From the NCBI GenBank assembly GCA_964596065.1, contig CAZQSM010000002.1, positions 10,361 through 74,360 of the forward strand: a stretch of DNA of 64,000 bases, written 5' to 3'. Source of the stretch: an uncultured Chlorobiaceae bacterium. GTDB lineage: Bacteria > Bacteroidota > Ignavibacteria > UBA10030 > SZUA-254. Under the pieces are notes generated by a model. The model saw only the letters and a list, made by a program, of their open reading frames with translations, was not told the origin of the DNA and did not search any database. The position numbers and the translations under genes were made by a program. How positions within the stretch are numbered: position 1 is the stretch's first letter; each line of letters opens with the position of its first letter. This document shows, in pieces, positions 4,816 through 63,176 of this stretch.

Positions 4816-4884
4816 GCCGCCCCGACGCGAGCGCCGCCGGCCATGGCGGGGGCGATGACGACGAACAACAACAGAAGACGACCA

Positions 4885-5271
4885 ATGAACCGAGTCAGAG
4901 GCATCGGCGGCATCTTCTTCAAGGCCAAGGACGCTCCGTCACTGCGGGCCTGGTATCAGCGGCATCTGGGGATCGACGTCCAGTCCTGGGGCGGCGCCGC
5001 CTTCACCTGGACAGACGCCGGGGGGAAGCCGGTCGCCGGCACGACCATCTGGTCCATCGGGCCGCAGGAAGGGACGCAATTCGCTCCAAGCTCCGCCCCC
5101 TTCATGATCAATTACCGGGTGGAAGACCTTCGCGCGCTGGTGAAGGCCCTGAAGGAAGAAGGCTGCAATGTGCTGGAAAAGATCGACGAATCGGAATATG
5201 GAACGTTCGCCTGGGTCCTCGATCCGGAGGGGAACAAGGTCGAGCTGTGGCAGCCGCCCGAGGGACAATGA
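4885..5271 (+). CDS. VOC-family (glyoxalase/bleomycin-resistance fold) protein
   Basis: GIGGIFFKAKD ... FAWVLDPEGNKVELWQP is a typical VOC beta-alpha-beta-beta-beta module. An alternative in-frame ATG lies at 4843. Confidence 0.6.
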   Translation: MNRVRGIGGIFFKAKDAPSLRAWYQRHLGIDVQSWGGAAFTWTDAGGKPVAGTTIWSIGPQEGTQFAPSSAPFMINYRVEDLRALVKALKEEGCNVLEKIDESEYGTFAWVLDPEGNKVELWQPPEGQ

Positions 5272-5361
5272 GCGGACCCGTGGCTCCCCTCAAGCTGGCG
5301 CCGGTCGGCGCGTGTTCTTCCTGACGGGTTTCCCCGGCGGCGCGCTCACGGGGCGGGCACG

Positions 5362-5760
5362 ATGAGTCAGGTCCACCAGATCACGCCGATGCTCCACGTG
5401 CCGAACCTCGAGGATGCCCTCCGCCTGCTCTGCGAGACGCTGACGTTCGTCGTTAAATACCGGGAACCGGGGTACGCCTACCTGGAACTGCAGGGCGCCG
5501 GCCTCCGGCTCCTGGAGGAGCCGGGACGCGCCACGCCGCCGGATGGCAAGGCCCGGATGACCGTGTACGTCGACGTGTCCGACGTCGATCGGTTCTACGA
5601 GATGATCCGGCTGAAACTCGGGCAGCTCCCGAAGGAGATGGTCGACACACCGCGCGATAAACCGTGGCGTCAGCGCGAATTCATGGTCAGGTTGCCCGAC
5701 GGGGATTGGATGGCCTTCGGGCAGGCGGTCAAAACTCCCGAAGGATACATTCCCCCTTAA
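5362..5760 (+). CDS. VOC-family (glyoxalase/bleomycin-resistance fold) protein
   Basis: ITPMLHVPNLEDAL ... REFMVRLPDGDWMAF matches the VOC fold. Confidence 0.6.
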   Translation: MSQVHQITPMLHVPNLEDALRLLCETLTFVVKYREPGYAYLELQGAGLRLLEEPGRATPPDGKARMTVYVDVSDVDRFYEMIRLKLGQLPKEMVDTPRDKPWRQREFMVRLPDGDWMAFGQAVKTPEGYIPP

Positions 5761-5907
5761 AACGCGCTCTATGGCGCACGCCGGCAGTCCCCCCCGGCCC
5801 CCGGTCCGGACTGCTTGGAGTTATCATATTCTATCCATAGTTTCACCCGGGACGTTCCCCGGCCTTCCGGGCGGAATCGTCCGGCAAACCAACCTGAAGG
5901 AGGTTCG

Positions 5908-6276
5908 ATGAAAGCCGACAAGAAGCACCGATCCGGCGTCACGCGGATCCTCGACTCACTCCAGGAACCGATCGCGGGATACGCCCGCGATCTCCGCGGC
6001 ATCATCCGGAAGGCGGAGCCGGGGATATCCGAAGGAATCAAGTGGGGCATGCCGGTCTATGAAAAGGAGAGGCTGGTCTGCGCGATCCGACCCGGCAGAG
6101 ACTACGTCGCGCTTCAATTCTACACCAGTGGCACCAGCCTGAGCGATCCCAGTGCGCTGCTCGAAGGGACGGGAAAAAAGATGCGACACGTCAAGATCCG
6201 CTCAAAGCGCGACATCAAAAAGAGAATATTCACGGCCTGGATCAGACAGGCCGCGGCGACGGCCGGGAAATCGTGA
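5908..6276 (+). CDS. DUF1801 (YdhG-like) domain protein
   Basis: GAAGGAGG ribosome-binding site then ATG; IKWGMPVYEKERLVCAIRPGRDYVALQFY is the DUF1801 signature. The upstream part of ORF 5815.. was rejected. Confidence 0.6.
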   Translation: MKADKKHRSGVTRILDSLQEPIAGYARDLRGIIRKAEPGISEGIKWGMPVYEKERLVCAIRPGRDYVALQFYTSGTSLSDPSALLEGTGKKMRHVKIRSKRDIKKRIFTAWIRQAAATAGKS

Positions 6277-6286
6277 CCGGTCGCGG

Positions 6287-6745
6287 ATGACGATGACTGT
6301 CCAACCCGGATCGATCCACTACGTCGAAATCGTGACACCGGATGTCGAAGCCGTTCGCGCCCTCTACGAAACGTGCCACGGAGTACGCTTCCAGCCGAAG
6401 GACCCCGTACTCGGGAACGCCCATGTGGCGGCACTTCCGGCCGGACCCCTCTGCGGGATCCGGGCGCCGATGCACAGCGCCGAAAAACCGGTGGTGCGTA
6501 CCTACCTCCGCGTGAACAATCTCGCGAACTCCGTCCAGCTGGCCGCCGTGCGGGGCGCGAATATTCTGCTCGAGCGAATGGAGCTCCCCGGGCGCGGGAT
6601 CATCGCGATCTACGAACAGGGGGGTGTCGAACACGGGCTCTGGCAGGTTGAACAGTCTCCCGGCGCAACGGCGGTCGCTCACGCCGGCGGAGGAAACGAT
6701 CGTCGACGCACCCGCGGCGGGGGCGGGACGAACGCCGGACGATGA
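6287..6745 (+). CDS. VOC/glyoxalase-like domain protein
   Basis: IHYVEIVTPDVEAVRALYETCHGVRF ... GIIAIYEQGGVEHGLWQ resembles a glyoxalase-like domain. The C-terminal approximately 35 aa are low-complexity. Confidence 0.5.
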   Translation: MTMTVQPGSIHYVEIVTPDVEAVRALYETCHGVRFQPKDPVLGNAHVAALPAGPLCGIRAPMHSAEKPVVRTYLRVNNLANSVQLAAVRGANILLERMELPGRGIIAIYEQGGVEHGLWQVEQSPGATAVAHAGGGNDRRRTRGGGGTNAGR

Positions 6746-7488
6746 AGGAACTCGGGCAAATATCTGAAATCGTGCGCTATCCCGTCAAGTCGATGGCCGG
6801 CGCTGCGACGGACGCGGCGTTCCTGGGGTGGCACGGGCTGGCCGGGGACCGGCGCTTCGCCTTCCGGCGGCTTGGAGACGAGGGCGGCTTCCCCTGGCTG
6901 ATCGCGAGCCGCGTCCCGGAACTGCTCCTGTACCATCCGATGGGTTTCGACGAGACAACCGGGGAACCGCTGCCGACGCGCGTCCGCACACCCGCGGGGA
7001 CCGAGCTGGAGCTCCGCGGCGCGCAGCTGCGGGACGAAATCGCCGGGCGGTTGGGTGCCGGGGTGGAACTGATGAACTTCAGAAACGGGATCTTCGATGA
7101 TGCCCCGGTATCGGTCATCAGCCAGGCGACGATCGCGGCCATCTGCACCCGGTCGGGGGTGGCGCCCGACCGGCGACGCTTCCGGGCCAACATCGTGCTC
7201 GACGCGGGCGACCCCGCCCCGTTTCACGAGGATGGTTGGGTCGGGGGGACGCTGACGTTCGGAGACGTCAGTTCCGGGCCCGCCGTGGGGGTGACGTCCC
7301 GGGACGTGCGATGCGTGATGATCAACCTCGATCCGGATACTGCGGAAAAGGACGCCAGCGTGCTGAAGGCGGCGGTCGCGCTGAACCGGAACAACGCGGG
7401 GGTCTACGGGACGGTGTTGCGGACCGGCACGGTCCGGGTAGGCGATCGCGTGCGGTTCGCCACCGGTACCCGACGCGCCGGTCGTTGA
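6742..7488 (+). CDS. MOSC-domain protein (MOSC N-terminal beta-barrel plus MOSC)
   Basis: IVRYPVKSMAGAA... and FRANIVLD...GWVGGTLTFGDV...VTSRDVRCVMINLDPDT match the MOSC family. Start overlaps the upstream stop codon. Confidence 0.7.
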   Translation: MKELGQISEIVRYPVKSMAGAATDAAFLGWHGLAGDRRFAFRRLGDEGGFPWLIASRVPELLLYHPMGFDETTGEPLPTRVRTPAGTELELRGAQLRDEIAGRLGAGVELMNFRNGIFDDAPVSVISQATIAAICTRSGVAPDRRRFRANIVLDAGDPAPFHEDGWVGGTLTFGDVSSGPAVGVTSRDVRCVMINLDPDTAEKDASVLKAAVALNRNNAGVYGTVLRTGTVRVGDRVRFATGTRRAGR

Positions 7489-51284: not shown

Positions 51285-51635
51285 ATGATCATCGAAGAAA
51301 CCAGTGTCGGTGGCGTCGACGTGTTTCGGCTCAAGGGTGATTTCATCAGCGAACCCGACCAGACGAAATTCCAGCAGAAGGTCAGAGACCTCGTCCACGG
51401 GGGAGTCACCAGGCTGGTCGTGGACCTGCACGACGTCCATTACATCAACAGTTGCGGTATCGGTTCCCTCGTCGGGGCCCTGACGACCCTCCGCCGATCG
51501 GGCGGCGACATCCACCTCGCCGAAACCACGCGCGAGGTCAGGAGCGTCTTCGAAACCGCCCAGCTCGAACTGATATTTCATTTTCATTCCACCGTCCAGG
51601 ACGCCATCGGCGCCATCGGTCGGAAGACCCTTTAA
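51285..51635 (+). CDS. STAS-domain anti-sigma-factor antagonist (SpoIIAA/RsbV-like)
   Basis: 116 aa; LVVDLHDVHYINSCGIGSLVGA with the phosphorylatable Ser in the NSCG context typical of anti-anti-sigma factors. ATG at codon 131 of ORF 50895..; TTGACA hexamer about 55 nt upstream. Confidence 0.65.
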   Translation: MIIEETSVGGVDVFRLKGDFISEPDQTKFQQKVRDLVHGGVTRLVVDLHDVHYINSCGIGSLVGALTTLRRSGGDIHLAETTREVRSVFETAQLELIFHFHSTVQDAIGAIGRKTL

Positions 51636-51733
51636 CCAGCCACCGGGGGAGAACCACCCGCGGTCCATCATCGGTCCATTGTCCCCGGACGGGTCCGGGG
51701 GCCGGCCATTTCGTTCCCGCATCGAGCATCGGC

Positions 51734-52138
51734 ATGGAGAAAAAGTTCAGCAAGGATTTCGGTTCCCTCGACCGGATCGACGCGTTCGTCAGGTCGTTCG
51801 CGGCCGGACGCGGCCTCGACGAGGGCACCGTGTTCACGCTCAATTTCGTAATCGAGGAGATCTTCACCAACATGGTCAAGTACCAGCCCACCGCCGCGAA
51901 TGACGTCCTGATCGGACTCTCGATCGACGGCGGTTCGGTTACCGTCAAGATGGTCGACTACGGGGTGCGATACTTCGACCCGACGTCCGCTCCCCCGGTC
52001 GACACCGGGAAACCGCTCTCGGAGAGGCGCCCGGGCGGCCTCGGCGTCCACCTGGTGAAGCAGTACATGGACGACTTCAATTACGAGTATGTGGGTTCCG
52101 ACAGCATCATCACACTGACAAAAAAACTGAAGGTTTAG
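51734..52138 (+). CDS. anti-sigma regulatory factor, RsbW/SpoIIAB-like serine kinase (HATPase_c_2)
   Basis: 134 aa; NFVIEEIFTNMVKY (N-box) and GGLGVHLVKQYMDDFNY (G-box) of GHKL ATPases of the RsbW type. Confidence 0.6.
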   Translation: MEKKFSKDFGSLDRIDAFVRSFAAGRGLDEGTVFTLNFVIEEIFTNMVKYQPTAANDVLIGLSIDGGSVTVKMVDYGVRYFDPTSAPPVDTGKPLSERRPGGLGVHLVKQYMDDFNYEYVGSDSIITLTKKLKV

Positions 52139-52139
52139 C

Positions 52140-52424
52140 ATGTTCGACGCGACAATACCGGGGGAGGGACGGATCCTGCTCTCCGGACGATTTGATGCGG
52201 CCCAGGTCGAGAAGGCGAGGGCCGTCTTCGACCTGGTGAACGTCCATACGGTGGTGGATTTCGCCCAACTCGATTATATCTCGAGCGCCGGACTCGGGAT
52301 ACTCCTGATGACCCAACGGCGCCTGAAGGAGTCGGGGACCGGCCTGAAGCTGATCAACATGAACAAGCATATCAGGGACGTCTTCCAGTACGCGGGTTTC
52401 GACAAGATTTTTGAAATCGCTTGA
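52140..52424 (+). CDS. second STAS-domain anti-sigma-factor antagonist
   Basis: 94 aa; VDFAQLDYISSAGLGILL with the conserved Ser in the DxISSAG context. Starts 1 nt after the kinase stop. Confidence 0.6.
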   Translation: MFDATIPGEGRILLSGRFDAAQVEKARAVFDLVNVHTVVDFAQLDYISSAGLGILLMTQRRLKESGTGLKLINMNKHIRDVFQYAGFDKIFEIA

Positions 52425-52521
52425 AAAAAGTCCGTTATCCGGCCCGTTTTGGCATGTTTAAGCGCCCGGGAGGATGTTTCGGCGGAGATCCCAACTTTTT
52501 CCCTGATCGCCTGTACTTCCA

Positions 52522-53055
52522 ATGACCGAAGACCAGACACTGGTCCGGCGATACCTCGGCGGAGAGCGCGGGGCCTTCGAACCCCTGGTGGACCGGTACC
52601 AGAAGACGATCTACAATGTCGCGCTCCGGATGGCCCGCGATCCGGACGACGCCGCGGACATCACGCAAAACGTCTTCATCAAGGCGTCGGAAAAACTGGG
52701 GAGTTACGATCCGAAGTACAAGTTTTTCAGCTGGATCTACAGGATCGCGGTCAACGAGTCGCTGAATTTCGTCGGGTCGAAGCGGAGGAACGACGAATTG
52801 CCGGAGGACCTGGTCTCCGGCGAGGGCAATCCGGAAGAGATGCTCCAGGCGGGGATGCTTTCACACTCGGTCGAGGAAGGGCTCGCGAAACTGACCGACG
52901 ACAACCGGATCGTGATCATCCTCCGCCACTTCGAAGAGCTGTCGTACGACGAGATCGGCTTCATCCTCGACCTGCCCGTGAAAACGGTCAAATCGCGGCT
53001 CTTCACGGCGAGGCAATCACTGAAAAAAATTTTATTACAGAAATTCGAACAATGA
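52522..53055 (+). CDS. RNA polymerase sigma-70 factor, ECF subfamily
   Basis: Region 2 (YQKTIYNVALRMARDPDDAADITQNVFIKA) and region 4 HTH (LSYDEIGFILDLPVKTVKSRL). Confidence 0.85.
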   Translation: MTEDQTLVRRYLGGERGAFEPLVDRYQKTIYNVALRMARDPDDAADITQNVFIKASEKLGSYDPKYKFFSWIYRIAVNESLNFVGSKRRNDELPEDLVSGEGNPEEMLQAGMLSHSVEEGLAKLTDDNRIVIILRHFEELSYDEIGFILDLPVKTVKSRLFTARQSLKKILLQKFEQ

Positions 53056-54434
53056 AACCAACGGATTATCGGGAACTGGTCTACCGGGAACTCGACGGGG
53101 ACCTCACGCCGGAGGAGTCGGCGAAGCTCGGGGAGATGCTCGCCTCCGATCCGGAAGCGCGCATGTTCCACGACGAATGCCGCTCGATGTTCGCGATGCT
53201 GCGGGAAATCCCCAGGCGGGAGCCGTCGTCCCAGTTGAAGAAGAAGATCCTCAACAGCATTAAACCGCCGGCGCCCACTCGCCGGCATTCCATCATTCAC
53301 ACAATCACATCAACATTCACTTTTTCACAATATCAGGAGGTCGGTATGAAAAACAAGCTCATCATCGGCGGAGCGCTGGCCGCGGTCGCGGTCCTCTACT
53401 TCGCGGTTCTGTATCCCTGGCCGTCGGAATCCGAACTGTTCGGGACCATCGGCGGGGCCAAGAAATACCGTTCCGAGCAGATCGCCGACAAGGACGTCGT
53501 CCTGGAAGGGCAGGAAAACTCGACAGACGGTTCTTCGGGCGGATCGGCAAACGACGGCGGCCTCGGCCGCTCGGCGGAAGTCTTCCGCAGCGCGGACGTG
53601 CAGAAGCTCGCGGAGATCGCCCGCACCGCCGACGTGCAGAAGCTCGCGGAGATCGCCCGCACCGCCGACGTTCAAAAGCTGGCGGCGATCGCCCGCACGG
53701 CGGACTACTACCGCACGGCCGACGTCCAGAAGCTCGCGGAGATCGCGCGCACGGCCGACGTCCGGAAGTTCGCGGAGATCGCGCGCACGGCCGACGTCCA
53801 GAAACTCGCGGAGATCGCGCGCACGGCTGACGTCCAGAAGCTCGCGGATATCGCCCGCACGGCGGATTTCTACCGTACCGCGGACGTCCAGAAACTCGCG
53901 GCCATTGCCCGCACGGCTGATGTCCAGAAGCTGGCGGAGATCTCCCGCACCGCCGATGTCCAGAAAATGGCGGACATCGCGCGCACGGCCGACGTGCAGA
54001 AGCTTGCCGAGATCGCCCGCACGGCCGACGTGCAGAAGCTGGCCGAGATCGCCCGGACCGCGGACTTCTATCGCACGGCCGACGTGCAGAAGGTTGCCGA
54101 CATCGCCCGCACGGCGGATGTCCAGCGCATGGCGGACGTCGCCCGCACGGCGGATGTCCAGCGGATGACGGCCATCGCCCGCACGGCCGACGTGCAGAGG
54201 CTCGCCGACATCGCCCGCACCGCCGAGGTCTACCGCACGGCCGACGTGCAGAAGCTGGCGGAGATCGCGCGCACGGCGGATGTCCAGCGCATGGCGGACA
54301 TCGCCCGTACGGCGGACGTCCAGCGGATGACGGCCATTGCCCGCACGGCGGACCTTCAGAAGCTCGCGGAAATCGCGCGTACGACCGACATCCAGAAGAT
54401 GGCGGATATCGCCCGCTCCGCTTCCCACGAATAA
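53052..54434 (+). CDS. single-pass anti-sigma factor with tandem-repeat extracytoplasmic domain
   Basis: ATG overlaps the sigma-gene stop (ATGA). N-terminal 98 aa resemble an anti-sigma N-terminal domain (YRELDGDLTPEESAKL..FHDEC, degenerate zf-HC2). TM helix at residues 100-121. Residues 181-456 are 21 copies of ARTADVQKLAEI plus 4 AD(Y/F)YRT hexamers. Confidence 0.65.
   Translation: MKPTDYRELVYRELDGDLTPEESAKLGEMLASDPEARMFHDECRSMFAMLREIPRREPSSQLKKKILNSIKPPAPTRRHSIIHTITSTFTFSQYQEVGMKNKLIIGGALAAVAVLYFAVLYPWPSESELFGTIGGAKKYRSEQIADKDVVLEGQENSTDGSSGGSANDGGLGRSAEVFRSADVQKLAEIARTADVQKLAEIARTADVQKLAAIARTADYYRTADVQKLAEIARTADVRKFAEIARTADVQKLAEIARTADVQKLADIARTADFYRTADVQKLAAIARTADVQKLAEISRTADVQKMADIARTADVQKLAEIARTADVQKLAEIARTADFYRTADVQKVADIARTADVQRMADVARTADVQRMTAIARTADVQRLADIARTAEVYRTADVQKLAEIARTADVQRMADIARTADVQRMTAIARTADLQKLAEIARTTDIQKMADIARSASHE
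53592..54419 (+). repeat. in-frame 36-bp tandem repeat array (21 units) with four 18-bp punctuation units, coding ARTADVQKLAEI
   Basis: The period-36 repetition is directly visible in the sequence (gcccgcacggccgacgtgcagaagctcgcggagatc, etc.). Units differ mainly at synonymous third positions. Mirror ORFs on the minus strand are artefacts of the repeat. Confidence 0.9.
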
Positions 54435-54461
54435 CAGACGGCATCCCGACCGACGGTCGGA

Positions 54462-54492
54462 GGGGGGACGCCCGGCGTCCCCCCTTTTTTTT
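54462..54492 (+). terminator. rho-independent terminator downstream of the anti-sigma gene
   Basis: GGGGGGACG-cccgg-CGTCCCCCC stem-loop (9-10 bp G/C stem) immediately followed by T8. Lies 28 nt after the stop codon and only about 35 nt before the next ATG. Confidence 0.75.
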
Positions 54493-54527
54493 GCCCCCCT
54501 TTGGCATTTTTTTTAATATATTCACGA

Positions 54528-57509
54528 ATGCGTTTCACCATTTCCGTGGGCCGGATATCGGCCCGTCTGCGATTCGGCCTCCTGCTCCTGTCCGCCGCCG
54601 CGTCGGCGCCCGTCGGCGGGCCGCTCAGGGCCCAGTTCACGACGCTCGAGACGGAGCGCCAGCGCCTGATCTGGTACGACCCGGGCATCGACTACCTGAT
54701 CCCCCACGCGGCGCGGACCTTCGAGAACGCGATGACCTTTCACATGCGATTGTTCGACTATGAGCCGTCGGAGAAGGTCAGCGTCTTTCTCCACGATTTC
54801 AACGACTACGGCACGGGCGGGACGAGCACCATCCCGTGGAATTTCCTCAATATCGGCGTCGAGCCGTATGATTACGTCTACGAGACGGCCCCCACGAACG
54901 AGAGGATGAACTGGGTCTTCAACCACGAACTGGCCCACCTGGTCGCGGTGGACAAGCCCGCCGGCAGCGACCGCTTCTTCCGGTCGGTCTTCTTCGGGAA
55001 GGTGCTCCCGGTGGCCGAGAACCCCGTTTCGATGTTCTACAGCTTCCTGACCAACCCGCGATGGTATTCCCCCAGGTGGTACCACGAGGGGATCGCCACC
55101 TTCCTCGAGACCTGGATGGCCGGCGGCATCGGCAGGGCGCTCGGCGGTTACGACGAGATGATGTTCCGGACGATGGTGGCCGATTCCACCTACTTCTACG
55201 ATTTCGTCGGGATCGAGTCGGAGGGGACGACGATCGATTTCCAGATCGGGGCCAACGCGTACCTCTACGGGACCCGCTTCGTCAGTTACGTGGCGCTGAC
55301 GCGCGGGCCTGAAAAAATCCTGGAGTGGTTCAACCGGTCGGAGGGGAGCTCCGCCTACTTCGCCTCGCGGTTCGAGCAGGTCACGGGGAGCTCCCTCGAC
55401 GACGAATGGTCGCGCTGGATAGAGTTCGAGAAACGGTGGCAGCGCGCGAACCTCGATTCGGTGGGGACCTATCCCCTCACGCCGTACCGCGTGATCTACG
55501 ACGGCGTCCTCGGCTCAGTCTCGCGTCAATTCTATGATTCGGCGGCCGGTGAAATCTATTGCGCCGTCAATTATCCGGGCGCCACCGCCCACATCGCCGG
55601 GATCGACGTGGGGAGCGGGACGAAAGAGGCGCTCGTCGACGTCGAGACCCCGACCCTCTACTATGTCACGTCCATCGCCTACGATCCGGTACTCCGCAGG
55701 ATCTACTACACCACCGATAATTCCCGCTACTGGCGGGACATCAGGGTCCTCGACCTGAACACCGGCGACGACCGGAAGCTCTACAACGACGTCCGGACCG
55801 GGGACCTGGTCGTCAACCCGGCCGACCGGTCGCTCTGGGGGGTCCAGCACAACCGGGGAATCTCGAAGGTCGTCAGGATGCCCGACCCGTACACCCACCA
55901 GTACGAGGTCCTCGAGCTCGCCTACGGCAACGACCTCTTCGACCTCGACATTTCCCCCGACGGGAGGACGCTGATGGGGGTGCTGCTGGAGATCAACGGG
56001 CGGCAGAAGCTCGTCAGGATGGAGATCGATTCACTCGTCGCGGGCGTCCGCTCCCACGAGACGATCTACGAATTCGAGAACAACTCGCCGGCGAATTTCG
56101 TCTTTTCCCCGGACGGGAAGTCGGTCTACGGCACCTCGTACTACACCGGGGTGTCGAACGTGTTCAGGATCGACCTGGAGACGAAAAAACTCGACGCCCT
56201 CACGAACGCGGAGACCGGGATGTTTCGTCCCATCCCGTACACCGCGGATTCGATCATCGCATTCCGGTATTCGGGGAAGGGATTCATCCCGGTGGCGATC
56301 CCCATCCGGCCGACGGAGGACATCGCCCCGATCCGGTACCTCGGCCAGCAGATCGTCGAGCAGCACCCGGTCGTCACCACGTGGAAACTCGAACCCCCCA
56401 ACCCGCAGCGGATCAACATCGACTCGCTCACGATCTCCAGGGGCGAATACGACGGGCTGGGCGGCCTGCGCGTCGCCTCGGTCTACCCGATCGTGCAGGG
56501 ATACAAGGACGTCTACGCGCTCGGATTGACGGCGACGATCTCCGATCCGCTGCCGGTCCATTATTTCCTCCTGACGGGGTCGTGGTCCCCCAACCGCGAC
56601 CTGCCGGCGAAGGAACGGTTTCACGGTTCGGCGGAGTATTTCTACCAGACCTGGAAATTCGGCGCGGGGTACAACACCGCGGATTTCTATGACCTCTTCG
56701 GTCCCACCAAATCGAGCCGAAAGGGGTACACAGCGTCGATCGGCTACAGCCGGACAGTCTTCGAGGAGCGGCCCCGTTCGTTCGACTACGGCCTCACCCT
56801 GTCGGGCTTCTCGGACCTTGACCGGCTGCCCGACGCCCAGAACGTCACCCCGACGGTCGACCGGTTCCTCAGCCTCGGCCTGAGGCTCAATTATACGGCG
56901 TTGATGCGGACGCTCGGCGCCAACGATCACGAGCGGGGAATCAAGGCCACGCTCAACCTCAGCAGCAAGTACGGGACGAAGAAGTACTTCCCCAGGGTCC
57001 ATGCCACGTTCGATTACGGGCTGATCCTCTGGCAGCATTCGTCGCTCTGGTTCCGGACGTCGGCGGGCAATTCGTTCGGAGACCGTTCGAACACGCTGGC
57101 GAATTTCTACTTCGGCGGTTTCGGCAACAACTGGGTGGACCACGGCGAGGTGCGGCGGTACCGGGACTATTACAGTTTCCCGGGCGTCGAGATCAATGAT
57201 CTGGGGGGAAGCAACTTCGCCAAACTCACGCTCGAGTGGGACCTCCCGCCGATCCGCTTCAGGCGGGTGGGACTGCCCGCGGCCTACGCCAACTGGGCGA
57301 GGGTGGCGCTGATCTCCACCGGACTGGTGACGAACCTCGACGATGAGTCGCTGCGCCAGCGCGCGCTGAGCGTGGGGGCGCAGCTGGACCTCAAGCTGGT
57401 GTTGTTCTCCAACCAGGAATCGACCCTTTCAGGCGGCTTCGCGGCTGCCTTCCGGCCCGACCAGCGGCGCACGAGGGAGTGGATGGTGTCGCTGAAAATC
57501 CTCCGGTGA
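54528..57509 (+). CDS. 994-aa secreted protein: N-terminal HExxH (gluzincin-like) module, central PD40/TolB-like beta-propeller repeats, C-terminal beta-rich (outer-membrane-barrel-like) region
   Basis: Signal peptide MRFTISVGRISARLRFGLLLLSAAASAPVGGPLRAQ (ATG 54528; the TTG at 54501 proposed by the ORF caller was rejected). WVFNHELAHLVAVD HExxH with a downstream WYHEGIATFLE candidate third ligand. SPDGRTLMGV and FSPDGKSVYGT propeller blades. Last about 350 aa show alternating hydrophobic patterns. Confidence 0.55.
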   Translation: MRFTISVGRISARLRFGLLLLSAAASAPVGGPLRAQFTTLETERQRLIWYDPGIDYLIPHAARTFENAMTFHMRLFDYEPSEKVSVFLHDFNDYGTGGTSTIPWNFLNIGVEPYDYVYETAPTNERMNWVFNHELAHLVAVDKPAGSDRFFRSVFFGKVLPVAENPVSMFYSFLTNPRWYSPRWYHEGIATFLETWMAGGIGRALGGYDEMMFRTMVADSTYFYDFVGIESEGTTIDFQIGANAYLYGTRFVSYVALTRGPEKILEWFNRSEGSSAYFASRFEQVTGSSLDDEWSRWIEFEKRWQRANLDSVGTYPLTPYRVIYDGVLGSVSRQFYDSAAGEIYCAVNYPGATAHIAGIDVGSGTKEALVDVETPTLYYVTSIAYDPVLRRIYYTTDNSRYWRDIRVLDLNTGDDRKLYNDVRTGDLVVNPADRSLWGVQHNRGISKVVRMPDPYTHQYEVLELAYGNDLFDLDISPDGRTLMGVLLEINGRQKLVRMEIDSLVAGVRSHETIYEFENNSPANFVFSPDGKSVYGTSYYTGVSNVFRIDLETKKLDALTNAETGMFRPIPYTADSIIAFRYSGKGFIPVAIPIRPTEDIAPIRYLGQQIVEQHPVVTTWKLEPPNPQRINIDSLTISRGEYDGLGGLRVASVYPIVQGYKDVYALGLTATISDPLPVHYFLLTGSWSPNRDLPAKERFHGSAEYFYQTWKFGAGYNTADFYDLFGPTKSSRKGYTASIGYSRTVFEERPRSFDYGLTLSGFSDLDRLPDAQNVTPTVDRFLSLGLRLNYTALMRTLGANDHERGIKATLNLSSKYGTKKYFPRVHATFDYGLILWQHSSLWFRTSAGNSFGDRSNTLANFYFGGFGNNWVDHGEVRRYRDYYSFPGVEINDLGGSNFAKLTLEWDLPPIRFRRVGLPAAYANWARVALISTGLVTNLDDESLRQRALSVGAQLDLKLVLFSNQESTLSGGFAAAFRPDQRRTREWMVSLKILR

Positions 57510-57534
57510 CGGACGCGCCGATGGTGATCACCCG

Positions 57535-58560
57535 ATGAACATGGTTTCCGCCGACAGGCTCCTCGACATCGCGGTGAGCGTGCTCCCCGTGTTCCTCTTC
57601 CTCCTTGCCCTGGTGTTCCTCGACAGTTACAAGCTCGTGAAGGTCCACGAGGTGGCGGGGACCATCATCTTCGGGGCGCTCTCGGCGGTCGCGGCCCTCT
57701 TCCTGAACACGTTCATCGCCCAGTATGTGCCGAGGGGCATGCACATCATGCCCCGGTACGTCGGGCCGGTCACCGAGGAGGTCCTCAAGGCGGTGTTCGT
57801 GGTCTACCTCATCCGCAGCGGCAAGGTGGGGTTCATGGTGGACGCGGCGATCCACGGCTTCGCCGCCGGCGCCGGGTTCGCGTTCATGGAGAACGTCTAC
57901 TACCTCCAGACGGTCGGGGGGAGTTCCACCATGGTGGTATGGCTGATCCGCGGCTTCGGGACGGCCGTGATGCACGGCGGCACGGCGGCGATCATGGCGA
58001 TCATCGTGAAGAGCCTCGCCGACCGCTCCCCGTCGCCCCGGCTCTGGCACCTGGCCCCGGGCGCCGGCGCCGCGATGCTGCTCCATTCCTTTTTCAATCA
58101 TTTCCCCCTTCCGCCGCAGTTCATGACGGCGTTCCTGCTCGTCTCGCTGCCGCCGATCATGGTGTGGGTCTTCCACCGGAGCGAGAAGTCGACACGCGAG
58201 TGGCTCGGGGTCGGCTTCGACACCGATGCCACGCTCCTGGAAGCCGTGAACACCGGGGAGGTTTCCCGCACGAAGGTGGGGGAATACCTGGAGACCCTGA
58301 AGGCCAAGTTTCCGGGGGAGCTGGTCGCCGACATGCTCTGCATGCTGCGGATCCACCTGGAGCTCTCCATCCGGGCCAAGGGGGTCCTGCTGATGCGAGA
58401 GCACGGGTTCGAGTCGAAACCGGAGCCGGACACCGCGGAAAAGTTTTCGGAGCTGGACTATCTCGAGAAGAGCCTCGGCAAGACGGGGATGATGGCGATC
58501 AAGCCCTTCCTCCATACCACCTCCAGGGACCTGTGGCAGCTCTATTCGATCGGCCGATGA
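57535..58560 (+). CDS. prsW: PrsW-family intramembrane metalloprotease
   Basis: Polytopic; conserved PrsW blocks EExxK (VTEEVLKAV), FxxxH/FAFMEN (IHGFAAGAGFAFMENVYY) and HGGTAAIMA; long cytoplasmic C-terminal tail. Confidence 0.7.
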   Translation: MNMVSADRLLDIAVSVLPVFLFLLALVFLDSYKLVKVHEVAGTIIFGALSAVAALFLNTFIAQYVPRGMHIMPRYVGPVTEEVLKAVFVVYLIRSGKVGFMVDAAIHGFAAGAGFAFMENVYYLQTVGGSSTMVVWLIRGFGTAVMHGGTAAIMAIIVKSLADRSPSPRLWHLAPGAGAAMLLHSFFNHFPLPPQFMTAFLLVSLPPIMVWVFHRSEKSTREWLGVGFDTDATLLEAVNTGEVSRTKVGEYLETLKAKFPGELVADMLCMLRIHLELSIRAKGVLLMREHGFESKPEPDTAEKFSELDYLEKSLGKTGMMAIKPFLHTTSRDLWQLYSIGR

Positions 58561-59033
58561 CCGCGACGCGCGGAAGGGGGGCGTGGCCGGCGGTCACGGC
58601 CGCCGTGACGCTCTTCCTCCTCGCCTCCTGCGGGGCGCCCCCCGCGCCCGACTGGCGGAGCGAGGTGAGCGCACTCCTCACCGCCCAGGCCGCGGCGTGG
58701 AACCGCGGGGACATCGCCGGATACATGGACGGGTACTGGCGGTCGGACAGCCTCCTGTTCACCAGCGGCGGCTCGGTCAGGAGGGGGTGGTCGGAGACAT
58801 TCAAAAAGTACGCCGCGACCTACGATTCGCGTGAGAAAATGGGAACGCTCACCTTCTCCGGTCTGGAATTCCACCTCCCCGCCCCCGGCGCGGCGTGGGT
58901 CTTCGGCCGGTGGGAACTGGCCCGGGCCTCCGACGCGCCCGGCGGCGTGTTCACCGTCGTCCTCCGGCGCTTCCCCGAAGGATGGAAAATCGTCCACGAC
59001 CATACATCGTCCGACCCGGAACAACACCAGTGA
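58557..59033 (+). CDS. SnoaL-like / DUF4440 (NTF2-fold) lipoprotein
   Basis: ATG overlaps the prsW stop (ATGA). Lipobox LLASCG. LTAQAAAWNRGDIAGYMDGYWRSDSLLF...VFGRWEL...GWKIVHDHTS is typical of NTF2-like DUF4440. Confidence 0.5.
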   Translation: MTATRGRGAWPAVTAAVTLFLLASCGAPPAPDWRSEVSALLTAQAAAWNRGDIAGYMDGYWRSDSLLFTSGGSVRRGWSETFKKYAATYDSREKMGTLTFSGLEFHLPAPGAAWVFGRWELARASDAPGGVFTVVLRRFPEGWKIVHDHTSSDPEQHQ

Positions 59034-59041
59034 AAAGGACC

Positions 59042-59938
59042 ATGAACGCCGACGCCCTCTACCAGACCGACTTCCCGACCCTGAAGCTCGTACGACGCGG
59101 TAAGGTCCGCGACCTCTACGACCTCGGCGACCACCTGCTCATCGTCGCGACCGACCGGCTCTCGGCCTTCGACGTGGTGATGCCGCAGCCGATCCCGCTG
59201 AAGGGGAAGGTGCTGACGCAGATATCAAACTACTGGTTTTCGCTGATGACCGACATCATCCCGAACCACCTGGTGGCGACGTCGGTCGACGAATTCCCGG
59301 CGGAGTGCGCGCCCTACCTCGACCTGCTCAGGGGGCGGAGCATCCTGGCGAGGAAGACGACGCCCCTCCCGATCGAGTGCGTGGCCCGCGGGTACGTGTC
59401 GGGCTCCGGATGGATCGAGTACCGTGACGGCGGGAAGATCTGCGGGATCCCGCTCCCCCCGGGGCTGAAGGAGTCGGAACGGCTCCCCCGGACGCTCTTC
59501 ACCCCCGCCACGAAGGCGGAGGCCGGGCACGACGAAAATATTTCGTTCGAGACGGCGGCCGGGATCGTGGGAATCGAAACGGCGGAAGCCGCGCGAGCCA
59601 CCACCCTGAAGATCTACGAACGGGCCTCGGAGATCGCGCTCGACAGGGGGATCATCATCGCCGACACCAAGATGGAATTCGGGACCACCCGCGGCGGGCT
59701 GGTCCTGATCGACGAACTCCTCACGCCCGACTCCTCCCGCTTCTGGCCGAAGGGCCGTTACGCCCCGGGGCGGCCCCAGGAGAGTTACGACAAGCAATTC
59801 GTCCGGGACTACCTGCTGTCGATCGGCTTCAACCGTCAACCGCCGGGCCCGGCCCTCCCGCCCGACGTCATCGAACGGACGACCGACCTCTACCGGCAGG
59901 CGCTCATGCTCGTCACGGGGAAGGACGTGGAGGGGTAG
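59042..59938 (+). CDS. purC: phosphoribosylaminoimidazole-succinocarboxamide synthase (SAICAR synthetase)
   Basis: GKVRDLYDLGDHLLIVATDRLSAFD, IADTKMEFG, SRFWPKG are PurC signature blocks. Confidence 0.85.
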   Translation: MNADALYQTDFPTLKLVRRGKVRDLYDLGDHLLIVATDRLSAFDVVMPQPIPLKGKVLTQISNYWFSLMTDIIPNHLVATSVDEFPAECAPYLDLLRGRSILARKTTPLPIECVARGYVSGSGWIEYRDGGKICGIPLPPGLKESERLPRTLFTPATKAEAGHDENISFETAAGIVGIETAEAARATTLKIYERASEIALDRGIIIADTKMEFGTTRGGLVLIDELLTPDSSRFWPKGRYAPGRPQESYDKQFVRDYLLSIGFNRQPPGPALPPDVIERTTDLYRQALMLVTGKDVEG

Positions 59939-60087
59939 ACCGGGGGATTTTTCTCCCCCGCGGAATTTTCGTATAATGGTGAACAACCGCCATCCCGGCG
60001 CGTACACCCGTGGGCGCCGGGCCGTCACGTTTCCCGCGTTGCCGCTCACAATCAACGATTCCCAGTACAATGACATTGGAGGAGATT

Positions 60088-61434
60088 ATGTTCAGAGGCA
60101 TCAGTCTGGTCGTGATGACGCTGCTCGGGGGTTTCGCCCTGACGGCGCAGCAGGACGAGAGCAAGGTTTTTCCGTACCCGATCAACCAGGTCACGCTCGA
60201 CAACGGCCTGAAGATCGTTTCGATCCCGTTCGACAGCCCCGGGATCGTCGCCTTTTACACGGTGGTGAGGACCGGTTCGCGCAACGAGGTGGAGCCCGGC
60301 AAATCGGGCTTCGCCCATTTCTTCGAGCATATGATGTTCCGCGGGACGGAGAAATACGACAAGACCGCCTTTAACGAAATCCTCCAGTCGATCGGGGCCG
60401 ACAACAACGCGTTCACCTCCGACGACCAGACGGTCTATCATACGCTCGCGAGCGCCGACGCCCTCGAGACGATGATGGACATGGAGTCGGACCGGTTCAT
60501 GAACCTGAAGTACTCCGAGGAGGACTTCAAGACCGAGGCGGGCGCGATCCTCGGCGAATACAACAAGAACTATTCGAGCCCCTTCATGACCATCTTCGAG
60601 AAGATGCGCGAAGCGGCGTACGAGCAGCACACCTACAAGCACACCACGATGGGCTTCCTGAAGGACATCGAGGACATGCCGAACCAGTACCAGTACAGCC
60701 TGGAGTTCTTCGATCGCTGGTACCGGCCGGAGAACTGCGTGCTGGTGATCGTCGGGGATTTCGACCAGGAGAAGCTCGTGGCCCTGGCGAAGAAATATTA
60801 CGGTCCGTGGAAACGCGGGACCTACAAGCTCGACGTTCCGCTCGACGCTCCCCAGACGGCGGAGAAGCTGATCAACCTCCCCTGGAAGGCCAAGACGCTG
60901 CCGATCGTCGCCATCGGCTACCACGGGCCGGCGTTCAGCGACAATTCACGCGACATGCCGGCGATGGACCTCCTCTCGCAGCTCGTCTTCTCGCAGACGT
61001 CCGACCTTTTCCGCAAGCTGGTCATCGAACAGCAGCTGGTGGAGTTCGTGCAGGGCAGCCAACCGGACAGCAGGGACCCGGGCCTCTTCACCATCTTCGC
61101 GCGGGTGAAGGACCCGAAGAACATCGACCTGGTCCGCGAGGAGATCGAGAAGGCGATCGCGGACGCGATGGTGACGCCGGTGTCGGCGGAGCGGCTGAAG
61201 GACATCAAATCGCACCTGAAATACCAGTACGCGATGGGGCTCGACAACCCGAACTCGGTGGCGAACAGCATCAGCCATTACATCCAGCTCACGGGCGACC
61301 CCGAATCGGTGAACAGGGTCTACCGGCTCTACGACCAGATCACGCCCGCGGACATCCAGGCCGCGGCGAAGAAATATCTCACCAGGACCAACAGGACCAC
61401 GGTCATTCTCAAGCAGGAGGAGAGCTCACAATGA
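60088..61434 (+). CDS. M16-family (pitrilysin-like) zinc peptidase, catalytic subunit
   Basis: Signal peptide; inverted zinc motif HFFEHMMFRGT (HxxEH) plus downstream E; GGAGG ribosome-binding site. Confidence 0.8.
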   Translation: MFRGISLVVMTLLGGFALTAQQDESKVFPYPINQVTLDNGLKIVSIPFDSPGIVAFYTVVRTGSRNEVEPGKSGFAHFFEHMMFRGTEKYDKTAFNEILQSIGADNNAFTSDDQTVYHTLASADALETMMDMESDRFMNLKYSEEDFKTEAGAILGEYNKNYSSPFMTIFEKMREAAYEQHTYKHTTMGFLKDIEDMPNQYQYSLEFFDRWYRPENCVLVIVGDFDQEKLVALAKKYYGPWKRGTYKLDVPLDAPQTAEKLINLPWKAKTLPIVAIGYHGPAFSDNSRDMPAMDLLSQLVFSQTSDLFRKLVIEQQLVEFVQGSQPDSRDPGLFTIFARVKDPKNIDLVREEIEKAIADAMVTPVSAERLKDIKSHLKYQYAMGLDNPNSVANSISHYIQLTGDPESVNRVYRLYDQITPADIQAAAKKYLTRTNRTTVILKQEESSQ

Positions 61435-62948
61435 AGACGTCGGCACTGATACTGATGGCAGCATTCGCGATGGCCCTGACCCCCGCACCCCTCTCCGCCC
61501 AGGGCGGGTCCGCGGTGAAAATTACCGAGCTCCGGAGCGAACGTTCTCCGCTCATCACGATCCGGATCGCGCTCCGCTCCGGGGCGATCAACGATCCCGC
61601 CGGCAAGGAAGGGCTCAACGCCCTCACCGCCACGCTCATCGAGCAGGGCGGGACGCAGAGCCTCACCTACGCCCAGGTGATGGAAAAACTCTACCCGTGG
61701 GCGGCAAACATCTCCTCGCAGTCGGACCACGAGCTCACGACGTTCACCGGCAACGTCCACCGCGACCACCTCGAGGCGTTCTACAGGCTCTTCACCGACC
61801 TCGTGCTCAGGCCGCGGTTCGATTCGGCCGATTTCTCGAGGGTGAAGGACCTGGGGATCAACTACCTGGTGAACACGCTCCGGTCCACCGACGACGAGGG
61901 GCTGGGCAAGCAGGCGCTCAACGCGTTCCTCTTCGAGGGGCATCCGTACGGTACGACGGAATTCGGGACGGTGCAGGGGCTGACGTCGATCACGCTCGAC
62001 GACGTGAAGGCCTATTACGCGAAGACCTACACCCGGGCCAACATCTGGGTCGGGATCGCGGGCGGCTATCCGGCCGGGTTCGCGGAGAGGATCCGCGCCG
62101 ATTTCGGATCTCTGCCGGCGGGCGAAGCGACGGTCGTGGCGCTTCCGGCGCCGTCGAAGATCGAAGGCCTGGAACTGCTGGTGGTCCAGAAACCCGCGCG
62201 GGCCTACGCCGTCTCGATGGGGTTCCCGCTCCCGATCACCAGGAAGGACAGGGACTTCTACGCACTGATGGTGGCGAACTCCTATTTCGGGGAACACCGG
62301 ACCTTCAGCGGTGTGCTGATGAACACCATCCGGGGCGACCGGGGAATGAACTACGGCGACTACTCGTACATCGAAAAATTCACCGGCGGGACCTCGGGGA
62401 CCACCTTCCCGAACGTGAACACCCCGCTGCGGCAGCAGTTTTTCAGCATCTGGCTCCGGCCGATGCCCCCGGCGCAGACGCACTTCGGGATACGGGCCGC
62501 GCTGTACGAACTCAAACGCCTCGTCGACCAGGGGCTGAGCGAGGCGGACTTCGAGACCACGCGAAAATTCCTCACAAACTATTCCAAGCTCTGGGCCGCC
62601 ACGGCGGACCGCCGGCTCGGATACGTGATGGACAGCGAATTCTACGGCACGCCATACTACATCGACCGGATCGCGAGCGAGCTGAAGACGCTCACGGCGG
62701 CGGACGTCAACGCGGCGGTGAAGAAATACCTGTCGCCCGACAACCTCAGGATCGCGGTGGTGGTGGACGCCGGCGCCGGCACGGCGTTCTTCGACAACCT
62801 GGCGAACAACGTCCCCTCGCCGATGGCGTACGAGGCCCCGAAGCCGCAGGCCGTCCTGGACACCGACAAGGTGATCGAGGTCTTCCCGCTGAAGGTGAAC
62901 AGGGCGAAGTCGAGGGTGGTCGAGGCGAAGGACCTGTTCGAGAAGTAG
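61431..62948 (+). CDS. M16-family peptidase homologue lacking HxxEH (non-catalytic partner subunit)
   Basis: Signal peptide; M16 fold blocks present but no HxxEH. ATG overlaps the upstream stop (ATGA). Confidence 0.7.
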   Translation: MKTSALILMAAFAMALTPAPLSAQGGSAVKITELRSERSPLITIRIALRSGAINDPAGKEGLNALTATLIEQGGTQSLTYAQVMEKLYPWAANISSQSDHELTTFTGNVHRDHLEAFYRLFTDLVLRPRFDSADFSRVKDLGINYLVNTLRSTDDEGLGKQALNAFLFEGHPYGTTEFGTVQGLTSITLDDVKAYYAKTYTRANIWVGIAGGYPAGFAERIRADFGSLPAGEATVVALPAPSKIEGLELLVVQKPARAYAVSMGFPLPITRKDRDFYALMVANSYFGEHRTFSGVLMNTIRGDRGMNYGDYSYIEKFTGGTSGTTFPNVNTPLRQQFFSIWLRPMPPAQTHFGIRAALYELKRLVDQGLSEADFETTRKFLTNYSKLWAATADRRLGYVMDSEFYGTPYYIDRIASELKTLTAADVNAAVKKYLSPDNLRIAVVVDAGAGTAFFDNLANNVPSPMAYEAPKPQAVLDTDKVIEVFPLKVNRAKSRVVEAKDLFEK

Positions 62949-62951
62949 CGG

Positions 62952-63176
62952 TTGAAAATATCCGTCATCGTCAAACCGAACTCGAAGCGGGAGGGCGTCG
63001 TCGCCTCGGGGGAGGGGACCTACACGGTGCGCGTGTCCGCGCGGCCGGTGGAGGGGAGGGCGAACGAAAGGGTCGTGGAACTGCTGGCCGGCCATTTCGG
63101 GGTCCCGAAGGGGCGGGTGACCATCCTCCGGGGGGTCGCCGGACGGAAGAAGATCGTCGAAATCGCAACGTCGTGA
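62952..63176 (+). CDS. DUF167 (YggU-family) protein
   Basis: 74 aa; VKPNSKREGV ... VRVSARPVEGRANE ... GVPKGRVTILRGVAGRKK matches DUF167. Confidence 0.6.
   Translation: MKISVIVKPNSKREGVVASGEGTYTVRVSARPVEGRANERVVELLAGHFGVPKGRVTILRGVAGRKKIVEIATS

Follow-up and report, generated by a model that had tools for sequence, protein, structure and literature searches.

We asked whether a gene for a PrsW-like intramembrane protease, found at positions 57535-58560 of a 64,000-nucleotide stretch of DNA from an uncultured Chlorobiaceae bacterium (contig CAZQSM010000002.1; the whole stretch is called the window below), serves the anti-sigma factor encoded upstream of it, or rather the lipoprotein whose gene overlaps its stop codon. 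The initial annotation had joined the three genes by analogy with Bacillus subtilis, where PrsW cleaves the anti-sigma factor RsiW. The answer that we consider moderately probable is that the gene encodes a catalytically competent PrsW-family (M82) intramembrane protease, dedicated to the sigma/anti-sigma cassette that it terminates. Judged from sequence, its most likely task would be the cleavage of this cassette's anti-sigma factor and, through it, the freeing of the sigma factor.

That the gene is real, as had been annotated, was confirmed by a 341-aa open reading frame on the + strand, residues 40-211 of which match positions 6-195 of the 196-position profile of the Pfam family PrsW-protease (PF13367) with 76.6 bits (cut-off 23.5) and E=2.4e-21. 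Membership of this family (PF13367/MEROPS M82, glutamic-type) is already known, and NCBI names such proteins 'PrsW family glutamic-type intramembrane protease'. In B. subtilis PrsW/YpdC, the family motifs are E75E76xxK79, F110xxxE114, H138 and H175xxxD/N179, and the E75A/E76A and H175A mutations knock out its function (PMC12943098; PMC4602095). The window protease carries E81-E82-x-x-K85, F115-x-x-x-E119, H147 and H184-x-x-x-N188, in the same order and with the same spacing. Two of the motifs originally listed, EExxK and HxxxN, were thus recovered, but the third, FxxxH, was mistaken; it is motif 2 of the CAAX/CPBP proteases, and the PrsW version FxxxE is present in its place. Careful alignment revealed no loss of catalytic residues, since E81, E82, K85, F115, E119, N120, H147, H184, N188 and H189 were invariant in 21 aligned homologues of 53-100% identity, in agreement with the earlier claim that the catalytic blocks are intact. 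The structure model of the protease (models here and below were based on database homologues) has seven transmembrane (TM) helices in an APH-1-like fold, that is, a multi-pass APH-1/CPBP-like protein with its N-terminus outside. Lys plus Arg residues average 1.7-2.3 in loops 1-2, 3-4 and 5-6 and in the segment after TM7, and 0-0.5 in the remaining loops; this bias indicates that the N-terminus lies outside, that the C-terminal domain is cytoplasmic and that the catalytic residues are directed toward the periplasmic leaflet. Altogether, the predicted protein is shown to be a member of the PrsW family that is intact and has a cytoplasmic domain of its own.

The genomic context was compared in 80 loci, obtained by scanning one genome per species and encoding PrsW-like proteins 45-80% identical. 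They came from about ten lineages (Ignavibacteria, KSB1, Bacteroidota, Zixibacteria, Gemmatimonadota, Calditrichota, Balneolales, Rhodothermales, Eisenbacteria and Woeseiaceae). Homologues of the neighbouring genes were detected by tblastn, and the counts cover the loci with sufficient flanking DNA. Loci from all ten lineages named kept one gene order: an RsbW-like kinase, a STAS protein, an extracytoplasmic function (ECF) sigma factor, an RsiW-like anti-sigma factor, a membrane repeat protein (family p348), a protein of about 980 aa and, as the last gene, the PrsW-like protease. The ~980-aa protein was encoded directly upstream of the PrsW-like gene in 60 of 63 loci, and upstream of it we also found p348 (47/55), the anti-sigma N-domain (48/51), the ECF sigma factor (44/49), STAS (43/47) and the RsbW-like kinase (36/47). 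The ~980-aa gene ends a median of 20 nt before the PrsW-like gene, with which it shares 4 nt in 8 loci. Close relatives (75-80% identity) were fully syntenic with the window, SnoaL gene and purC included, and this synteny is uninformative. Distant relatives (53-59% identity; KSB1 and other metagenome-assembled genomes) kept all the upstream genes and lost all the downstream ones, in the order GAF-SpoIIE phosphatase, HATPase_c_2 kinase, STAS, ECF sigma factor, ~265-aa protein, ~350-440-aa protein, ~980-aa protein and PrsW-like protease. The genes located 3′ of the PrsW-like gene were heterogeneous and often on the opposite strand, their largest family being present in at most 7 of 74 loci; of the two largest clusters, one seems to be a PP2C phosphatase, as tblastn hits fell at the same positions. 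The PrsW-like gene therefore terminates a cross-phyla cassette with an RsiW-like anti-sigma factor and a SigW/RpoE-like sigma factor. The proposed link to a sigma system stood up well, as relatives keep both neighbours at the frequencies given above. The anti-sigma gene does lie upstream in the window, but it is not adjacent: 3.1 kb separate the two genes and the 993-aa gene stands between them.

The sigma factor of the window scored 120.6 bits against the NCBIfam model of RpoE and 118.9 bits against that of SigW, the next-best model, both under the equivalog cut-offs. Adjoining its gene is that of a single-pass membrane protein bearing an anti-sigma domain of the RsiW type. This protein consists of the RsiW-like N-domain (residues 1 to ~90), a TM helix (residues 103-121, nt 53358-53414), a juxtamembrane GTIGGAKKY sequence and periplasmic 12-aa repeats. 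When the N-domain was used as a profile, its best solved relative was B. subtilis RsiW (5wuq_C, E=1.7e-10), followed by RskA. Two forms of the anti-sigma factor occur. In about 37 of 47 loci it is split in two: p265 carries the anti-sigma domain, a single TM helix and a periplasmic part of ~150 residues, and p348 a short N-terminus, a single TM helix, the conserved juxtamembrane motif GTIG..KKY...Q....DV.L and tandem repeats that differ by lineage. In 10 of 47 loci, the window included, the anti-sigma domain is fused to the TM helix, motif and repeats of p348, without the TM helix and ~150-aa periplasmic domain of p265 (compare the fused gene at 53052-54434 of the window with the split genes at 4823-5620 and 5722-6768 of locus L004). 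The existence of both forms indicates that the p348 moiety is the constant partner. As for the repeat itself, its unit varies by lineage, being the 12-aa ARTADVQKLAEI in the window and the 9-aa SNATFRDAL in L004 (5722-6768). Across these differing repeats, the TM helix and the juxtamembrane GTIG..KKY motif remain conserved. Table 1 collects the features of the window.

Table 1. Features of the cassette and its surroundings, in coordinates of the window.
Feature	Position	Strand	Length	Remarks
First STAS-type protein, likely anti-sigma antagonist	51285..51635	+	116 aa	5′ of the kinase gene; YINSCGIGSLV motif
RsbW-like anti-sigma serine kinase	51746..52138	+	130 aa	Pfam HATPase_c_2, E=2.7e-17
STAS anti-sigma antagonist	52140..52424	+	94 aa	Pfam STAS_2, E=1.8e-12; starts 1 nt past the kinase gene
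ECF-type promoter-like motif	52491..52518	+		CCAACTTTTT-N11-TGTACTT; ends 3 nt ahead of the sigma ATG
ECF sigma factor, RpoE/SigW-like	52522..53055	+	177 aa	Pfam Sigma70_r2 and r4_2
Single-pass anti-sigma factor	53052..54434	+	460 aa	Start overlaps the sigma stop codon (ATGA)
Tandem array within the anti-sigma gene	53569..54421	+		~23 copies of a 36-nt unit encoding ARTADVQKLAEI; Tandem Repeats Finder
Intrinsic-terminator-like hairpin	54459..54487	+		Between the anti-sigma and 993-aa genes; 13-bp stem with 9 G-C pairs, then a T run
Envelope protein	54528..57509	+	993 aa	Between the anti-sigma and PrsW-like genes
PrsW-like gene, whole open reading frame	57535-58560	+	341 aa	
PrsW-type 7-TM protease domain	57535..58209	+		Residues 1-225; catalytic motifs include K85, F115/E119 and N188
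Catalytic motif E81/E82	57775-57780	+		
Catalytic H147	57973-57975	+		
Catalytic H184	58084-58086	+		
Family-specific cytoplasmic helical domain	58210..58560	+		Residues ~226-341, up to the stop codon; five predicted helices
SnoaL_3/DUF4440 lipoprotein	58557..59033	+	158 aa	Lineage-specific neighbour

Behind its protease domain, the window protein extends into a C-terminal domain of ~115-130 aa (from residue ~212 or ~226 to 341) that is as conserved as the protease domain, with a mean column identity of 76%. This domain had zero Pfam matches, and a sequence search of the PDB returned nothing for either the full-length protease profile or the profile of the C-terminal domain. A HMMER scan of 1.84 billion representative proteins yielded 536 clusters; among the 150 matches listed, the full-length proteins (~330-345 aa) held the domain at residues ~200-335, always behind a PrsW domain, and the shorter ones resembled fragments. 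A kinship with anti-sigma domains was considered and rejected, since hhalign against the anti-sigma N-domain of the cassette gave a probability of 0.5%. A role as signalling peptidases was suggested for PrsW domains joined to cytoplasmic signalling domains (PMC3482391), and the present domain would be a new one of this kind. Its most likely role is that of a regulatory or docking module; more speculatively, through it the protease could be coupled to the RsbW/STAS/PP2C partner switch of the cytoplasm, whose genes open the cassette.

This putative partner switch varies in composition. In the window and its close relatives, the RsbW-like kinase gene lies between two STAS genes, with no PP2C phosphatase gene adjacent. 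The extra first STAS copy was seen only in this group, and its syntenic counterparts in L001 and L002 match Pfam STAS/STAS_2. A GAF-SpoIIE (PP2C) gene was adjacent in about 17 of 39 other loci, 5′ of the kinase gene in 14 and directly 3′ of the PrsW-like gene in 3. In some KSB1-like loci, the cassette is flanked by large Ser/Thr protein kinases with TPR, PD40 or FGE-sulfatase domains and by an ABM-domain protein (L004, 1-1240; L006, 1-246 and 11387-17262). The text of the ECF classification (PMC7826278) mentions neither PrsW nor STAS nor RsbW.

A promoter-like motif may link the sigma factor to its own gene. The consensus aCCAACTTTT-N12-TGTA(A/T)TT was found 5′ of the sigma gene in 43 of 48 loci; its CCAACT element occurred in 43 of the 48 upstream regions, as compared to 1.5 expected from shuffles, and its register to the sigma ATG was fixed. 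ECF promoters have the spacing AAC-N16-TGTA, so autoregulation of the sigma gene through the predicted promoter is likely. The TGTAnTT element mostly ends 0-4 nt before the sigma ATG, which is at odds with the usual distance from promoter to start codon, because transcription would then begin at or past the ATG; one possibility is a leaderless mRNA, another is that the motif has a role other than that of a promoter. The same consensus recurs 75-145 nt 5′ of p348 in at least 22 of 51 loci and is followed there by a GGAGG-containing leader. This second copy is absent in the window and present, for example, in L004 (5630-5653), L008 and L009 (5553-5576), L017 (4847-4870) and about 20 more. When a loose form of the pattern was searched on both strands of the loci (1.34 Mb), 42 matches lay upstream of the sigma gene, at least 18 upstream of p348 and 44 elsewhere. 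These results suggest that p348, and possibly also the genes of the 980-aa protein and the PrsW-like protease, belong to the regulon of the sigma factor. Between the p348 or anti-sigma gene and the ~980-aa gene, a strong G+C-rich hairpin with a T run, resembling a terminator or an attenuator, was found at the equivalent intergenic position in most loci and across phyla.

The protein encoded immediately upstream of the protease belongs to a family (~980/993 aa) with more than 4,400 database matches, nearly all annotated as 'hypothetical', and the 993-aa member of the window had no significant Pfam match. Weak matches to Peptidase_MA_2, PD40 and Omp85_2 recurred in independent members of the family. 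Its AlphaFold2 model (predicted local distance difference test, pLDDT, 80.5; predicted template modelling score, pTM, 0.80) shows a signal peptide, an alpha/beta-plus-helical HExxH domain (38-312), a beta-propeller (329-592), modelled as TolB-like, and a beta-barrel (648-991), modelled as BamA/Omp85-like and lacking POTRA domains, which together make up an unusual architecture. No strong fold match was obtained for the N-terminal HExxH domain, the lists being filled by matches to propeller and barrel. Its assignment as a gluzincin-like domain is based on the invariant residues H133-E134-x-x-H137 and E187/E194 and on the weak Peptidase_MA_2 matches in 6 of 26 members.

On the basis of these observations, we propose the following course of events. 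At rest, the RpoE/SigW-like sigma factor would be held at the inner membrane by the N-domain homologous to RsiW, and the periplasmic repeats of the anti-sigma factor would face the 993-aa protein, whose modelled architecture is that of an Omp85-type protein and whose place would be the outer membrane. Upon an envelope signal, the PrsW-like protease, with an active site that its N-out, C-in topology would open to the periplasmic leaflet, would cut the anti-sigma factor or the p348 moiety near the conserved juxtamembrane motif. This would be a site-1 cleavage like that of RsiW by B. subtilis PrsW, possibly after the HExxH protein has trimmed the substrate or made it accessible. The sigma factor would then be released by a site-2 protease together with cytoplasmic proteases and would transcribe, from promoters of the form CCAACTTTT-N12-TGTA, the gene that encodes it and also, in most lineages, p348. 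The cytoplasmic C-terminal domain of the protease may receive input from the RsbW/STAS/PP2C switch.

Several observations weigh against such a dedicated anti-sigma protease. The NCBIfam equivalog model of B. subtilis PrsW (NF033739) gave 25.8 bits against a cut-off of 225, and on this score the window protease is not orthologous to that enzyme. Site-1 cleavage could instead be carried out by the HExxH domain, another candidate protease encoded in the cassette, and the RsbW-like kinase could itself be the antagonist of the sigma factor. The conserved terminator-like hairpin splits the anti-sigma/p348 gene from the genes of the 980-aa protein and the PrsW-like protease, and therefore this protease pair may form a separate transcription unit, expressed by read-through or from its own promoter. 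Finally, 3 of 63 loci lack a ~980-aa gene upstream of the PrsW-like gene. Two of them are rearrangements that still hold the cassette, and in the third, L014, the cassette was not detected within 10 kb.

These considerations lead to the main alternative, which we judge unlikely overall though credible: the protease would work with the 993-aa protein to mature, sort or turn over the abundant membrane repeat protein, be it p348 or the repeat region of the fused anti-sigma factor, or another envelope protein, as an output of the regulon. The pairing with the 980-aa gene is indeed the tightest and the most conserved of all, with its 60 of 63 loci and frequent start/stop overlap. In addition, the p348 gene is in most lineages preceded by a promoter-like motif of its own and followed by a terminator-like hairpin, which would fit an abundant structural protein followed by processing enzymes made at a low level. 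Roles in protein sorting and export are on record for CPBP/PrsW-superfamily proteases (PMC11980579; PMC3482391). This alternative has to contend with the 10 of 47 loci, including the window, in which the anti-sigma N-domain is fused to the TM helix, motif and repeats of p348. Cleavage of the p348 moiety there would necessarily affect the anti-sigma factor, and the fused form thus argues against a clean split between sigma release and envelope processing. Moreover, the characterised PrsW enzymes all cleave RsiW-type anti-sigma factors, and the anti-sigma factor of the cassette is RsiW-like. We retain release of the sigma factor as the preferred function of the protease.

The lipoprotein was the other partner put forward in the initial annotation. 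Its gene does overlap that of the protease as described, the TGA at 58558-58560 sharing the ATGA with the start codon at 58557, and its product is SnoaL-like (SnoaL_3, 31.9 bits, cut-off 22; DUF4440, 31.5 bits, cut-off 25.2) with a lipobox, LLAS-C. Signal and lipobox would put the lipoprotein in the periplasm, where it could gate the protease as a ligand-binding cofactor, and the gene pair is retained in the closest relatives (L002, L010 and L012). A SnoaL gene, however, follows the PrsW-like gene in 3 of 75 loci only, all of them in the clade of the window; a hidden Markov model (HMM) built from the SnoaL proteins confirmed this, detecting no further adjacent copies and a single extra homologue 3.3 kb away on the other strand. 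The heterogeneity of the genes 3′ of the PrsW-like gene likewise speaks against a functional pair. In the window, the genes from 51285 to 59938 all lie on the + strand with very short gaps, and purC begins 8 nt past the SnoaL stop codon, so that tight spacing here reflects genome compaction and is not evidence of shared function. The SnoaL lipoprotein is a lineage-specific neighbour outside the conserved cassette, and we regard the cofactor role as improbable. The block that follows, purC and then two M16 peptidase genes and a DUF167 gene (59042-59938 and 60010-63176), was syntenic only in close relatives (L001 and L002).

Hardly any more room is left, and in our judgement slightly less, for a non-catalytic scaffold like the structural relative APH-1 of gamma-secretase, which would organise a site-2 or HExxH protease around the anti-sigma factor, as the invariance of the PrsW catalytic residues across 53-100% identity would be unexpected after a loss of catalysis. 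The least credible of all is a PrsW-type exporter or self-processing polymorphic toxin that releases its C-terminal domain as toxin or cargo: fusions of an N-terminal PrsW to a C-terminal toxin domain are on record (PMC3482391), but the domain is here conserved instead of polymorphic and predicted to be cytoplasmic, a conserved immunity-like gene was not found 3′ of the protease gene, and we ruled out such a fusion on the strength of this conservation and of the sigma-cassette context.

These results define a distinct PrsW subfamily that is genetically tied to an RsiW-like anti-sigma factor, an ECF sigma factor, a partner-switch module and a large protein modelled as an outer-membrane, protease-like protein. 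The arrangement spans the FCB (Fibrobacteres-Chlorobi-Bacteroidetes) superphylum, Gemmatimonadota, Zixibacteria and some Gammaproteobacteria, and offers a concrete candidate for the sensing of envelope state in mostly uncultured diderm lineages. Two unannotated modules, namely the protease's C-terminal domain and the HExxH-propeller-barrel protein, are delimited, and a candidate promoter motif is available for finding the regulon. In a limited search of the literature, no description of the cassette, of the C-terminal domain or of the 993-aa family was found. To our knowledge, studies of how PrsW brings about the release of an ECF sigma factor are confined to Bacillus and Clostridioides. As a tentative and rather doubtful extension, the cassette could be an undescribed trans-envelope device of diderms, in which the Omp85-barrel/zinc-protease/propeller protein reports the state of the outer membrane or periplasm to the repeat stalk of the anti-sigma factor and the PrsW-type protease cuts only when licensed by the partner switch through its private domain. 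If this were true, one ECF sigma factor would integrate envelope and cytoplasmic signals at a single intramembrane protease. As far as we could find, neither PrsW-dependent proteolysis of an anti-sigma factor beyond the Firmicutes nor an intramembrane protease gated by a partner switch has been described before, so that the cassette would then be the first case of both.

How does the cassette compare with known systems? With the sigmaW-RsiW-PrsW (YpdC) system of B. subtilis and the PrsW/RsiT pair of Clostridioides difficile it has in common the PrsW fold, the four catalytic motifs and an RpoE/SigW-like ECF sigma factor. A single-pass anti-sigma factor with an N-domain nearest to RsiW and a predicted extracytoplasmic-facing active site are likewise shared with sigmaW-RsiW-PrsW. 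The window protease differs from PrsW in that it is not orthologous, its host is a diderm of the FCB group, and its gene is linked to the sigma and anti-sigma genes, whereas in B. subtilis, and likewise in Clostridioides, prsW is not known to be linked to the gene of its substrate. It also has an extra cytoplasmic domain of ~115 aa, the extracytoplasmic part of its anti-sigma factor consists of long tandem repeats, and the cassette adds the barrel/propeller/HExxH protein and an RsbW/STAS(/PP2C) module. The 'signalling peptidases' in which PrsW is fused to PilZ, cNMP-binding, FHA or Zn-ribbon domains (Zhang et al. 2012, PMC3482391; Leptospira LIC_20173, PMC12943098) show the same architecture, an N-terminal protease followed by a C-terminal cytoplasmic domain by which cleavage would be gated. 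The C-terminal domain described here matches none of theirs and no entry of Pfam or the PDB, and it appears confined to the subfamily. The cassette may act like FecA-FecR-FecI, where an outer-membrane barrel, a single-pass anti-sigma factor and an ECF sigma factor are likewise co-encoded and the output is anti-sigma proteolysis. It has neither a TonB-dependent receptor nor a FecR domain and is not a member of that system; its barrel is Omp85/BamA-like with a propeller and HExxH domain, and the PrsW-type protease is encoded within the cassette. Similarly, a HATPase_c_2 kinase and a STAS antagonist, with GAF-PP2C adjacent in some of the loci, are shared with the RsbV-RsbW-RsbU/P switches of the sigmaB type. 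Here, the module has the order kinase then STAS, with a kinase, two STAS genes and no adjacent PP2C gene in the window, and it is linked to an ECF sigma factor that has its own membrane anti-sigma factor.

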